DNA of 64,000 nucleotides, from assembly GCA_021782495.1 (NCBI GenBank), contig JAJXUV010000001.1, forward strand, positions 182,637 through 246,636. The letters run 5' to 3'. This document shows, one piece after another, positions 18,207-51,039 of the stretch. The DNA is from Pseudomonadota bacterium (GTDB lineage Bacteria > Pseudomonadota > Gammaproteobacteria > UBA1113). The position numbers were made by a program, and so were the translations under genes. Below the pieces are notes generated by a model, which made no database searches, was not told where the DNA came from, and saw nothing but the letters and a program-made list of their open reading frames with translations. Every line of letters begins with the position of its first letter. The first letter of the stretch is position 1.

Positions 18207-18280
18207 CTAGGGCTTGTTTACATTTGGTTGGTCGAAGCGAAAAATGAGTAAGGCCGGTCAAAATCAAGACATTGACAAGA
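18207..18280 (+). repeat. Short, internally deleted derivative of MITE-A (ctagggcttgtttacattt...gtcgaagcgaaaaatgag...cattgacaag)
   Basis: It shares the left TIR-like end and the gtcgaagcgaaaaatgag core with the full copies at 47.35 and 50.88 kb. Confidence 0.5.
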
Positions 18281-18360
18281 AAAAGTTTTTTACTTAATAT
18301 CCCAGCTCTTAGCGATGGGCGCTAGGTGAATTACAATGAATAACGAAGGAGAGAATAATT

Positions 18361-18867
18361 ATGTCTAAATTATTTAAAATCACATTCTTACTGAGTGCTT
18401 TTATCGCAACGACTTGCCAAGCAGCCTCTGATGGTCTTTATACAGGCGTGCAATTGGGTGGGGCAGGCGCGATACTTGCGGGTGGTGGCGTCTACGGCCG
18501 TCTGTTATTAGGCGAACAAGTGAATCGCTTTTTTGCATTTGAAACAGGTGCCACCCTATTACCCCATACCAATAGCGGCGGCGGTTGGATACACGGAGAG
18601 GCAGGGAAAGCCTATACGGTGGATGGCGATGTAAAGCTGATGTTGCCCCTTGGCAGTCGTTTTAATTTGTATGCCAAAGCAGGTCCTTCCGTTGGATACG
18701 TAGAAGCGGATAGCAAAGGCATGGCATTGTTGGCAAATGCGTCTGTCGGTATGAATCTGGATTTGACGAAACACGTTTCTACCGATCTGTCTGTGGGAAC
18801 ACTATTCGGTCAGCGGGATTTTGCAGATGCTTTTATCGGACTGGGTATGAGCTATCATTTTGCTTAA
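18361..18867 (+). CDS. Small outer-membrane beta-barrel protein (OmpA-like TM domain / OmpW-like)
   Basis: Signal peptide, alternating-hydrophobicity strands, C-terminal aromatic end (MSYHFA). RBS aaggagag upstream. Confidence 0.6.
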   Translation: MSKLFKITFLLSAFIATTCQAASDGLYTGVQLGGAGAILAGGGVYGRLLLGEQVNRFFAFETGATLLPHTNSGGGWIHGEAGKAYTVDGDVKLMLPLGSRFNLYAKAGPSVGYVEADSKGMALLANASVGMNLDLTKHVSTDLSVGTLFGQRDFADAFIGLGMSYHFA

Positions 18868-18892
18868 AAAATAAGAAATAGAAACCACGCAA

Positions 18893-18926
18893 AAAATCAG
18901 CGCGCGACTAAGTTCGCGCGCTAAAA
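18893..18926. terminator. Bidirectional stem-loop terminator between convergent genes
   Basis: cagcgcgcgactaagttcgcgcgctaaaatt: a 9-bp GC-rich stem with A/T runs on both sides. Confidence 0.5.
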
Positions 18927-18933
18927 TTGCGAT

Positions 18934-19266
18934 TTATTCGTTGCTGCTGTTATCATCGCTGTCACTGGAAGTACCATCCTCAGAATCATCATCGTCCATC
19001 ATATTGCTGTCGTTGGCATTCGCATTATTATCTTGTTGCTCTTGCTGCGCACCAAAAGCAGAATAATTGTCCGTGCTGGCTGCTTCATCGTTGATTTGCG
19101 CAGGAGAATCGGTTTGATCTACGGCATCGTCATTGACTAACCCTCCTGCTGCTGAAGTCCCCGCATCCGCAAACATGGGTCTTGCATCTGCGGTTAAAGC
19201 AGCAAAACCCAATTGACTGAAACTCAATAAGGCTATAGCCGATATCAATACGCTTTTTGATTTCAT
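18934..19266 (-). CDS. Secreted acidic low-complexity protein (signal peptide plus D/S/E-rich tail)
   Basis: Signal peptide MKSKSVLISAIALLSFSQLGFA, C-terminal DDDDSEDGTSSDSDDNSSNE. I recognise no family. Confidence 0.45.
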   Translation of the reverse strand: MKSKSVLISAIALLSFSQLGFAALTADARPMFADAGTSAAGGLVNDDAVDQTDSPAQINDEAASTDNYSAFGAQQEQQDNNANANDSNMMDDDDSEDGTSSDSDDNSSNE

Positions 19267-48735: not shown

Positions 48736-48745
48736 ACCTTAGCCC

Positions 48746-50107
48746 CTAGTCTAAATTCACTTTTTGCAAATAGGTCGGTATTTCGCAATGCCAACCCAAT
48801 TCTTTTTCAATTTTCGCTTTTAAAAATGCGGCGGCTTGCGGCTCGCCGTGAACCAAAAACATTTTAGAAGGTGCTCGTTCGAAGTGTTTGAGCCACTGTA
48901 AAATGTCGGCATAATCCGCGTGGGCAGAAGCACTGTTTAAACACTTCACCTGTGCTTTAATGGTAAATGTTTCTCCGTGGATTTTCAATTGGCGTTGGCC
49001 TTCCAACAAACTCGCGCCACGCGTACCACCTGCCTGATACCCAGTCATTAAAATGGTATTACGCGCATCCGGTGCCAGCGCTTTTAAGTGGTGCAAGATA
49101 CGGCCACCCGTCATCATTCCACTGGCAGAGACGATAATTTTAGACGGGCCGGGTTCATCCAAAGCTTTAGATTCTTCCACACTGTTCACATAGGAAGCCA
49201 CTTTACAAGCTATAGCACACTGATCTTGGCTTAAATGGGTTTCAGTAGTTGCATATTGACGCAACAATTGTGTGACATCCACTGCCATGGGGCTGTCTAA
49301 ATAAATGGGAATGTCGGGTATGCGTTTTTCCTCTTTTAATTGCGCTAAATAATACAAAATACTTTGCGCACGGCCCACAGCAAAAGCGGGGATCAACACG
49401 ATCCCACCGCGCTGAATTGTTTCCATCACCACGGCAGCAATACTGTCTTTGGGATCGGTTTTATCGTGTAAATGATTACCATAGGTAGATTCCAACACCA
49501 AATAATCCGTTTGTAACAGTATTTCAGGCGCTTTCATGACGGGATCGTTAAAACGGCCAATGTCGCCACTAAACAACAATCGCTTTCCGGCTGATTCGAC
49601 TTGCACGAAAGAAGCGCCTAATATATGCCCGGCTCTGCGCCAAGTGATTTCAACCTCAGGAACAATCGTATATCGTTTCGAAAAATCAACCGCCTTAAAT
49701 TGTTTTAAAGATTCTTTGACATCGGCTACTGTATACAGAGGTAAGGCCGGATGGTGTTTGCTATAACCGTGTCGATTCGCCAAGCGCGCATCTTCTTCTT
49801 GCAAATACCCACTGTCGAGTAACAATATACTACACAAATCGCAGGTCGCTTTGGTCGCATAAATCGATCCTTTGAAGCCTTGTTTGACCAATAGAGGGAT
49901 ATAACCTGAATGATCGATGTGCGCATGCGTTAAAACCACTGCGTCTATTTCTGCAGGCGCAAAAGGCAATCTCGCCCAATTGCGCAATCGCAATTCTTTG
50001 TACCCCTGAAACAAACCGCAATCTACTAAAATATGTTTATTTTTAAAAGTTAATAAATATTTTGATCCGGTGACTGTGCCTGTCGCCCCTAGAAATTGAA
50101 GTTGCAT
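48746..50107 (-). CDS. MBL-fold beta-CASP metallo-hydrolase (RNase J / CPSF-like RNA-processing nuclease)
   Basis: MBL motif VLTHAHIDHSGYIP, beta-CASP and RMMBL-like C-terminus, 453 aa. Confidence 0.75.
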   Translation of the reverse strand: MQLQFLGATGTVTGSKYLLTFKNKHILVDCGLFQGYKELRLRNWARLPFAPAEIDAVVLTHAHIDHSGYIPLLVKQGFKGSIYATKATCDLCSILLLDSGYLQEEDARLANRHGYSKHHPALPLYTVADVKESLKQFKAVDFSKRYTIVPEVEITWRRAGHILGASFVQVESAGKRLLFSGDIGRFNDPVMKAPEILLQTDYLVLESTYGNHLHDKTDPKDSIAAVVMETIQRGGIVLIPAFAVGRAQSILYYLAQLKEEKRIPDIPIYLDSPMAVDVTQLLRQYATTETHLSQDQCAIACKVASYVNSVEESKALDEPGPSKIIVSASGMMTGGRILHHLKALAPDARNTILMTGYQAGGTRGASLLEGQRQLKIHGETFTIKAQVKCLNSASAHADYADILQWLKHFERAPSKMFLVHGEPQAAAFLKAKIEKELGWHCEIPTYLQKVNLD

Positions 50108-50108
50108 T

Positions 50109-50786
50109 CTAGTTTACACTTTGTTTCAATTGATTTTTCCAAAACATGATTTCAACACGTCGATTGAAATACTCGCCTTTGATGGTGTGTTGATCGGCAA
50201 TCGGTTCTTGATGATCCATGCCATAAAAATTCATTTGCTCCAAAGGCTTGCCATGCGCCCAGAAATAGGTCATCACGGCCTGTGCTTGCAATTGACTCAA
50301 CTCCAAAGCATGCATCAACGTACTGGTGGTATCGGTGTGCGCCGATACATTGATGTCCACGGGACCATACGTGTTTATATAAGCCAATACATCTGCCAAA
50401 ATAGGCAGCGAGGCATAAGTTAAATTGGCTTCATTGGGATAAAATAATTTATCAGAAGGAATGGTGATTTCAACCATATCACCGAGGCGAATCACACGCA
50501 AGCCTTCGTCCATCAGACGTTCATATTCTGCTTGTTGTTTCTGATAACTTATCCAGGCACCTACGCCTGCACCAATGGCGCCACCCACTAAGGCGTTGGA
50601 TCCCGTTGCCACCCCAATTCCCGCGCCTGTAATACCGCCTATCGCAGCGCCGCCCAGCACACCCGCTCCAATCTGCGAATGTGGCGTACTTTTGGGTGGA
50701 TACGAACCCGCTACTTTACTGGTATTTTGTGTACAAGCAACTAAAGTGAGTAAAATCAGTAGGAATAGACAGATAGGTTTAATCAT
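50109..50786 (-). CDS. OmpA-family peptidoglycan-associated lipoprotein with a glycine-zipper segment
   Basis: Lipobox LTLVACT, glycine zipper GAGVLGGAAIGGITGAGIGVATG, C-terminal OmpA-like domain (NRRVEI). Start refined to ATG 50786. The track ORF is extended 48 codons into MITE-A. Confidence 0.75.
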   Translation of the reverse strand: MIKPICLFLLILLTLVACTQNTSKVAGSYPPKSTPHSQIGAGVLGGAAIGGITGAGIGVATGSNALVGGAIGAGVGAWISYQKQQAEYERLMDEGLRVIRLGDMVEITIPSDKLFYPNEANLTYASLPILADVLAYINTYGPVDINVSAHTDTTSTLMHALELSQLQAQAVMTYFWAHGKPLEQMNFYGMDHQEPIADQHTIKGEYFNRRVEIMFWKNQLKQSVN

Positions 50787-50847
50787 GGAAGCGCTTACCC
50801 TTTTATAGAGATTATCACTATACCAATATTTCAATGGGTATGCAAAA

Positions 50848-50878
50848 AAAAGCCCTAAACGACAAGCGCTTAGGGCCA
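50848..50878 (-). terminator. Rho-independent terminator (gccctaagcgcttgtcgtttagggc plus a T-run on the minus strand), probably the hemF terminator, now separated from hemF by MITE-A
   Basis: Perfect 9-bp stem with TTTTTTTT on the minus strand. It lies 250 bp after the hemF stop with MITE-A in between. Confidence 0.55.
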
Positions 50879-51039
50879 GGGCCTGTTGACATTGAGTTTG
50901 TCGAAGCGAAAAATGAGGGAGCCGAGGCAAAATGATAGCAAATTTGAGGAGAATATCGGGTTATATTTGACGAAAATTTGCTATCATTTTGACCGGTTCT
51001 ACTCGTTTTGCAGCTGGCCAACCCAATGTCAACAGGCCC
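50879..51039 (+). mobile_element. MITE-A copy (161 bp, perfect 15-bp TIRs GGGCCTGTTGACATT / AATGTCAACAGGCCC)
   Basis: Perfect terminal inverted repeats. No coding capacity for a transposase. Homologous to 47348-47498 and, in part, to 18207-18280. Confidence 0.8.

Follow-up and report, generated by a model that had tools for sequence, protein, structure and literature searches.

An apparently undescribed family of miniature inverted-repeat elements inserted at TA/CTAG sites and gene ends in a Legionellales-like gammaproteobacterium

What kind of element is the repeat of about 160 bp that recurs at gene ends in a 64-kb stretch of DNA from a gammaproteobacterium (contig JAJXUV010000001.1; hereafter the window, in whose numbering all positions are given), and how could it have reached these sites? 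An earlier note, made from the sequence of the window, described it as a miniature inverted-repeat transposable element (MITE) that rewrites gene ends. This core reading is supported by the analysis presented here: the repeat very probably represents a non-autonomous MITE family that inserts at TA/CTAG and is mobilised in trans by a transposase encoded elsewhere. Gene calls were taken from a public contig of 413,781 bp in the ENA metagenome assembly ERZ27236847, part of which is identical to the window, and labels of the form L0xx denote loci or contigs fetched for comparison. The genes of the window include Dot/Icm type IVB secretion components, the mevalonate pathway and ankyrin-repeat proteins, and the best named homologues of its MFS transporter are from Legionella with about 40% identity; on these grounds the host is taken to be an uncultured Legionellales-like gammaproteobacterium.

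Evidence for mobility comes from empty sites, which were found in the relatives L065, L068 and L069 for four insertions: between the MFS gene and nudC, at the hemF terminator, between lptM and glnB, and at gatB. Because these four sites are empty in close relatives, the MITE is a genuine insertion, exhibiting the presence/absence polymorphism with precise empty sites that is expected of such elements. In L065 and L068 (MFS proteins 86% and 77% identical to that of the window, respectively), the MFS gene and nudC are separated by 22 and 17 nt, as compared to 173 nt in the window. L068 reads ...tgc gtg tCT AGa gac... where the window reads ...tgt ttg tCT A|GGGCCTG..., which places CTAG exactly at the insertion point. 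In L065, conserved sequence downstream of hemF leads directly into the terminator hairpin, whereas in the window the MITE is wedged just before this hairpin. The stop codons of lptM and glnB, 7 nt apart in L065, are separated by 52 nt in the window with a mini copy lying in between. At the fourth site, a full copy follows gatB directly on contig L045 from a sister sample, and the sequence gct TAA cc of L069 (target TTAA) corresponds there to gct TA|GGGCC.

Five copies are present in the window, another in its flank (L070) and another adjoining gatB, so that the family is dispersed within one genome; the elements are 150-165 bp long, lack coding capacity and end in terminal inverted repeats (TIRs). 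Coordinates are collected in Table 1. Of the two full copies reported in the earlier note, the one at 50.9 kb retains its limits, while the one at 47.4 kb begins at 47349 and not at 47348; their identity, given as about 85%, amounts to 84.7% over aligned positions, and they are indeed inverted relative to each other (121 nt, 88% complementary). The perfect 15-bp TIRs attributed to both hold for the 50.9-kb copy (GGGCCTGTTGACATT / AATGTCAACAGGCCC), which is flanked by CA and TT, a degenerate TA. They do not hold for the 47.4-kb copy, in which one end is perfect and the other, GGACCTGTTGACACT, has two mismatches, with TA at 47499-47500 and a degenerate TA (GA on the + strand) at 47347-47348. Furthermore, 15 bp understates the functional repeat, which extends over about 39 bp. 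The sequence at 18207-18280, described as an internally deleted copy of about 75 bp, matches only over its left 57 nt or so and has no right TIR; this one-ended remnant is preceded by TA at 18208-18209 and lies in the divergent intergenic region between panB and an outer-membrane-protein-like gene. The mini copies, which the earlier note had overlooked, came to light through matches to the end motif TAGGGCCTGTTKACAWT, which occurs eight times in the window at up to three mismatches as compared to 0.42 expected from shuffles. A third mini copy, 3 kb beyond the window (L070:6561-6607), retains in its loop the right subterminal sequence TTGCAGTCGATAAAC, and hence the minis are deletion derivatives of the full element. 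With 85% identity between full copies, deletion derivatives, TIR-only minis and a one-ended remnant, the family is old and decaying in this genome, and its copies here are probably no longer mobile. L065 also bears a degenerate right-half relic of the MITE at another site.

The mini copies at 45510-45556 and 5339-5379 do resemble simple intergenic hairpins at gene ends, and this resemblance, together with the failure to find a transposase, could be taken to mean that the elements are immobile, i.e. hairpins akin to repetitive extragenic palindromic (REP) sequences or terminators, kept or spread by recombination or by an enzyme of the REP-associated tyrosine transposase (RAYT) type. Such an explanation is scarcely credible in view of the defined ends, TA flanks and precise empty sites, the insertion within coding sequence in the MFS gene, and the absence of a GTAG-type REP head and of small self-palindromic units; the mini copy of L070, by keeping right-arm subterminal sequence, marks the minis as products of the full element. 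A REP/REPIN system with RAYT was rejected, as the arms show no self-palindromy, the element head reads TA-GGGCC and the region is devoid of Y1/HUH genes. Models based on attC sites or on Tn3-derived elements (5-bp duplication) were rejected on anatomy.

The MITE is not restricted to this genome. Had it been unique to the loci of the window, its interpretation would have been in doubt; conserved-end copies were however found elsewhere in the genome and in other metagenome-assembled genomes (MAGs) of Gamma- and Betaproteobacteria. Scanning one genome per species for an exact 18-mer common to three window copies yielded 43 loci, about 25 of them with homologous elements of about 163 bp. These hosts comprise a Legionellales MAG, a Lake Mendota gammaproteobacterial MAG, a Sulfuricellaceae MAG, an Azonexus MAG and other MAGs, and in the betaproteobacterial MAG VGIF01 homologous elements occur on at least 13 contigs. 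A scan of metagenomes added two new copies, its other matches being mostly to MAG contigs already found. In the resulting consensus, the inverted repeat of about 39 bp is bipartite, with a variable 21-bp terminus followed by an 18-bp subterminal core, the complete end being TA-GGGCCTGTTGACATTNNNTTNGTCGAAGCGAAAAATGAG. The outer 21 bp distinguish gamma-type elements (GGGCCTGTTGACA...) from beta-type elements (GCAGCCTGTCGGAC... or GGAGCCTGTCGGAC...). Since the search required the exact 18-mer, the left core GTCGAAGCGAAAAATGAG is bound to be invariant; the right core TCATTTTGCAGCCG, no part of the query, is nearly invariant while the termini differ. A mini copy with gamma-type ends was found in the betaproteobacterial MAG VGIF01, which suggests horizontal spread. 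On two contigs of this MAG (L015:442-663 and L040:4144-4330), the gamma-type mini abuts a beta-type full copy with one common TA (TG in L040), so that two MITE subfamilies are present in one genome and element junctions appear to serve as new targets. A variant beta-type copy (L023:111-274) carries the 'left' core GTCGAAGCGAAAAATGAG on both arms, forming a near-perfect palindrome without the usual asymmetric internal loop. The family seems to be undescribed and present in both Gamma- and Betaproteobacteria. A full-text search of the searchable literature with the core and TIR sequences returned chance primer matches only. Among 72,556 plasmids, blastn with elements of either type yielded no match beyond chance, and scans of viral contigs gave a single chance match inside a coding region.

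The target can be read from the flanks of 22 distinct copies drawn from all lineages. CTAG stands on the left in 14 of the 22 and on the right in 12, and most have TA on both sides, as expected of a target-site duplication. Copies outside CTAG repeat TA only (ATAG...CTAA, GTAG...CTAT), hence the duplication is TA and not the 4-mer; near-identical beta-type copies, all flanked by CTAG, show no repeat beyond it. The target of the MITE is a TA dinucleotide, by preference within CTAG, and insertion duplicates this TA. Of the palindromic tetranucleotides in the window, CTAG is the most depleted (79 observed and 236 expected, a ratio of 0.33), and its scarcity partly accounts for the clustering of insertions at stop codons and gene ends. 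The element begins with G and ends with C, so that each junction reads TA-G. As a consequence of the target TA being followed by the first G of the element, a gene whose TAA or TAG stop codon is hit by an insertion still ends in TAG, and insertion into CTAG recreates CTAG at both junctions due to the same terminal G...C, which fits the abutting elements with one common TA in VGIF01 (L015).

A TA duplication with CTAG preference, as found here, is the signature of IS630 and its relatives, and the transposase that acts in trans on the MITE copies would be of the IS630/Tc1-mariner type, with the subterminal core as its putative binding site. Derivation from a CTAG-targeting group of the IS5 family, in place of IS630, is unlikely. 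Ends starting with G(G/C)xGCCTGT presumably resemble some IS5-family termini, and the beta-type copies, with CTAG on all flanks, are compatible with either model. A precedent exists in MITEPsy1, derived from the IS5-family element ISPsy2, which inserts at CTAG or YTAA (PMC3189936). However, the gamma-type copies outside CTAG repeat only TA, their 4-mers differing by side as given above, and the gatB site changes from TTAA to TTA|G..., whereas IS5-group elements of the MITEPsy1 type duplicate 4 nt; an IS5-type 4-bp duplication is thus ruled out for gamma-type copies by their TA-only flanks.

In agreement with the earlier note, no transposase domain was detected among the open reading frames (ORFs) of the window, and the same applies when about 20 kb of flank is included (about 84 kb), a region in which IS630-matching TIRs or a DDE_3-type transposase were likewise absent. 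An all-versus-all comparison of ORFs across the fetched loci revealed no repeated transposase, and a protein search with the translated frame of the MITE, covering spurious ORFs or the N-terminus of a parent transposase, gave no candidates. Several points have to be set against the reading as a MITE mobilised in trans. The autonomous insertion sequence (IS) with matching TIRs that the earlier note proposed to look for was not found in the window, its flanks, or the genome, metagenome, viral and plasmid scans, so that the transposase family is assigned from the TA/CTAG target signature only; MAG assemblies usually lose IS copies, which makes the absence of an autonomous partner weak evidence. 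Use of CTAG, or of short duplications containing TA, is also known from some IS5-family groups, as in MITEPsy1 (PMC3189936). Mobility is seen as presence/absence among relatives at 77-95% protein identity and not as a transposition event, both full copies of the window have degenerate TA flanks (CA/TT and TA/TC), and invariance of the 18-mer is partly an artefact of the search, the right-arm core being the only one independently conserved.

The whole MITE is an imperfect palindrome, and every full copy folds as a single long hairpin with a minimum free energy of -64 to -113 kcal/mol (z -7 to -18), two of the values being -88 and -64 kcal/mol (z about -13 and -10). Transcripts crossing the MITE would, according to this folding, carry a very stable hairpin of 150-160 nt. 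Within an alignment of 12 sequences, compensatory double changes were observed in 24 of 45 consensus pairs. These properties could mean that the MITE is a mobile module of structured RNA or single-stranded DNA, in which the hairpin with its conserved asymmetric internal loop (AAGCGA opposite GCAGC) is functional and spread is secondary; the module might be a small RNA, an element of mRNA processing or stability, or a hairpin to which a host protein or a single-strand transposase binds. Apart from hairpin stability, this improbable alternative draws on the covariation between beta and gamma lineages, some of it outside the terminal repeat, on the near-invariance of the unsearched right-arm core TCATTTTGCAGCCG next to differing termini, on the top strand folding at least as well as the bottom one in each of 12 copies, and on an inward TTGACA-N17-AAAAAT site in the gamma-type left end. 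Yet this promoter-like site is missing from beta-type elements, the MITE contains no terminator and copies lie in both orientations relative to flanking genes. Strand-specific selection at the RNA level is not claimed: G-U mismatches outnumber A-C mismatches by 44 to 11 with the top-strand structure, but the counts become similar (49 and 38) with strand-neutral pairs, giving no clear strand-specific selection. A Rfam search gave no match at gathering score in the window and none overlapping the MITE at E<=1 in five loci. Palindromy and covariation are also expected if both arms are recognised by one transposase, or upon descent from an IS with long TIRs. A hairpin-dependent mobilisation or regulatory system of an undescribed kind, such as one in which folded single-stranded DNA or RNA is recognised by an enzyme or an RNA-level module spreads horizontally, was considered because of the bipartite architecture, the core loop common to Gamma- and Betaproteobacteria, the covarying hairpin and the lack of a detectable parent transposase; we regard it as improbable.

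Under mobilisation in trans, the present-day effects of the copies would be mainly passive and consist of altered 3' ends and of hairpins in 3' untranslated regions and between co-transcribed genes, further consequences being scattered homology at which recombination could occur and, in gamma-type left ends, possibly an inward promoter. For the MFS gene, the earlier note had correctly placed the last three codons (R-A-C) and the TGA stop (47488-47490) within the TIR of the 47.4-kb copy. The protein tail reads ...ETRCLSRAC here, while orthologues without the MITE do not end in ...SRAC but in ...ETGCVSRDIALI (...SRDIALI) and ...ETRCIPQEASV. The MITE has thus exchanged a few residues of a non-conserved MFS terminus, and insertion a few codons upstream of a stop swaps only the protein tail. 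The glnB stop TAG (45508-45510) is formed by the left TA and the first G of the mini copy, and the gatB stop in L045 likewise becomes TAG from the target TA and the G of the MITE. The location assigned to the 50.9-kb copy, between the hemF stop (51124) and its terminator hairpin, was also found to be correct, the copy now separating the two.

The N-terminal extensions that the note described on the nudC and ompA-lipoprotein ORFs were rightly called spurious, since the public gene calls place both starts, that of ompA (50786) and that of nudC (47314), outside the MITE; the extensions are artefacts of ORF listing. The peptide LSKRKMRE... said to be common to them is not on the ompA ORF, which reads the opposite strand of the MITE (MPRLPHFSLRQ...); it is common to the nudC extension and a free-standing + strand ORF (50886-51245). 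This shared 'peptide' follows from the conserved 18-mer, and the frame beyond the 18-mer is not conserved between lineages. Among promoter-like sites, the 18.2-kb remnant holds a related TTTACA-N17-AAAAAT. Immediately past this remnant, a near-consensus promoter TTGACA-N17-TAATAT (18271-18299) precedes the outer-membrane-protein-like gene (18361) by about 60 nt, with no obvious sign of an origin from the MITE.

Table 1. Copies of the MITE in the 64-kb window and features of the genes and sites adjoining them
Feature	Position	Strand	Remarks
Full-length MITE copy, 161 bp	50879-51039	+	nhmmer E=6e-44; empty site in relative L065
Full-length MITE copy, 150 bp, right arm with 11-nt deletion	47349-47498	-	Site empty in L065 and L068
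One-ended MITE remnant, left ~57 nt	18210-18265	+	Model positions 2-58, nhmmer E=3e-8
Mini copy (TIR-only hairpin, 47 bp)	45510-45556	+	TA on both sides; abuts glnB stop
Degenerate mini copy (TIR-only hairpin)	5339-5379	.	TA flanks; between dotH/icmK and groEL
MFS transporter gene, C-terminal RAC and stop MITE-derived	47488-48735	-	Codons inside TIR
Native intrinsic terminator, 11-bp stem and T8, now split from hemF by MITE	50851-50877	-	Homologous hairpin in L065
Inward promoter-like site in left end of 50.9-kb copy	50886-50914	+	TTGACA-N17-AAAAAT, consensus match only (10/12)
Promoter-like site in 47.4-kb copy, towards nudC	47463-47491	-	TTGACA-N17-AAAAAT; consensus match only

Inversion of the 3.4-kb segment bracketed by the two full copies (47.3-51.0 kb), which the earlier note had considered as a possible outcome, was not observed, as all contigs spanning the segment keep the reference order and orientation. 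L045 is all but identical to the window for 3.7 kb; midway through the 47.4-kb element it changes over to the distal half of the copy next to gatB and its flank (L045:3621-3784), so that a hybrid MITE connects the MFS gene with the 3' end of gatB and not with nudC. Such a junction reflects either true recombination between MITE copies or a chimera made in assembly via the repeat. L046 terminates within both elements, as is usual where a repeat interrupts assembly. In L065 (2400-4740), two additional genes, one for a 338-aa unknown protein and one for a methyltransferase, with a right-half relic of the MITE, lie between the RNase J-like gene and the MFS gene, which are adjacent in the window.

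Comparison with known elements places the MITE near several of them. Bacterial MITEs derived from IS630/Tc1-mariner elements, such as Nezha of cyanobacteria and RUP of Streptococcus, are small, form hairpins, lack an ORF and duplicate TA; CTAG is preferred by IS630 and IS870, and in IS870 the target TAG serves as a stop codon. All these features, namely the TA duplication, CTAG preference, TAG stop use, small size, hairpin and absence of an ORF, are found in the window MITE, which differs in that its sequence could not be shown to resemble any described element, in that neither a parent IS nor an IS630-type transposase was found, and in its bipartite repeat with a variable terminus and an 18-bp core common to bacterial classes. 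Correia elements (CREE/NEMIS) of Neisseria are 100-160 bp long, duplicate TA, occupy intergenic regions often at gene ends, are co-transcribed and carry promoter-like ends, and to our knowledge their cognate transposase was never identified. The MITE resembles them in size, TA duplication, gene-end location, promoter-like ends and the lack of an identified transposase; however, its TIR GGGCCTGTTGACATT... is unrelated to the characteristic 26-bp Correia TIR, its host range spans Legionellales and Betaproteobacteria, and the consensus site for integration host factor (WATCAANNNNTTR), internal to Correia elements, was found in none of 12 copies tested. ERIC/IRU sequences of Enterobacteria are imperfect palindromes of about 127-160 bp, intergenic and transcribed into hairpins that may influence the fate of mRNA. 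The MITE is likewise an intergenic imperfect palindrome over its whole length, but unrelated in sequence and with an insertion mechanism backed by empty sites and TA flanks. Within Legionellales, QMITE1 and QMITE2 of Coxiella burnetii overlap gene ends, C-termini included, and carry sigma-70-like promoters; QMITE1 is 300-400 bp long with variable direct repeats of 2-4 bp, QMITE2 150-190 bp with direct repeats of 7-11 bp, a TA/CTAG target is not reported and no orthologues outside Coxiella were found by the authors (PMC5896051). The likeness lies in a Legionellales relative with MITEs at gene ends and promoter-like sites, and the difference in the 150-165 bp and TA duplication of the window MITE, a separation drawn from published descriptions and not from sequence. 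MITEPsy1 of Pseudomonas syringae, a 100-nt non-coding element, prefers CTAG and altered the 3' end of avrPphE; it creates a 4-nt duplication and has the TIR GGAAGGTCTGAAAAAGCC (PMC3189936). It is thus alike in CTAG preference and in changing a gene 3' end but differs in duplication length and TIR.

Other features of the window were recorded alongside. A second, unrelated MITE-like repeat of about 120-130 bp occurs at 36830-36946 and 39414-39530 as an inverted pair with 84% identity; each has its own internal hairpin, and together they bracket lpoA-like (LppC) and yraN-like genes. Short REP-like intergenic hairpins with the core ATCCCTGCGAAGGCAGGGAT are located at 5561-5586, 26158-26183, 26196-26221 and 31089-31114, two of them as an inverted pair at 26155-26230. 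The low-G+C region 54000-58100 (35% as compared to about 43%) contains a gene for a 935-aa AAA_21 ATPase adjoining a HigB-toxin gene and a small partner ORF, and is possibly an acquired defence or toxin-antitoxin islet. ORFs 22419-25439 (1006 aa) and 1054-2217 (387 aa) have no Pfam match at E<=1e-8; they may encode Dot/Icm components or effectors, since the second adjoins dotH/icmK and a TrbI-like gene. No RNA gene, tRNAs included, was detected in the 64-kb window by the Rfam search at gathering score.

The MITE is thus an ordinary kind of element, whose effects on gene ends are small and well documented. TA/CTAG targeting, with a terminal G that regenerates the stop codon, provides for harmless settling at gene ends in a compact genome, and insertion slightly upstream alters only a poorly conserved tail. 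For annotation the family serves as a warning, because such MITEs yield spurious ORF extensions and shifted stops and cause contigs of metagenome assemblies to break off or to be joined into chimeras. The link between Legionellales and freshwater Betaproteobacteria points to horizontal spread of the transposase, and the subterminal core offers a sequence handle for finding it.

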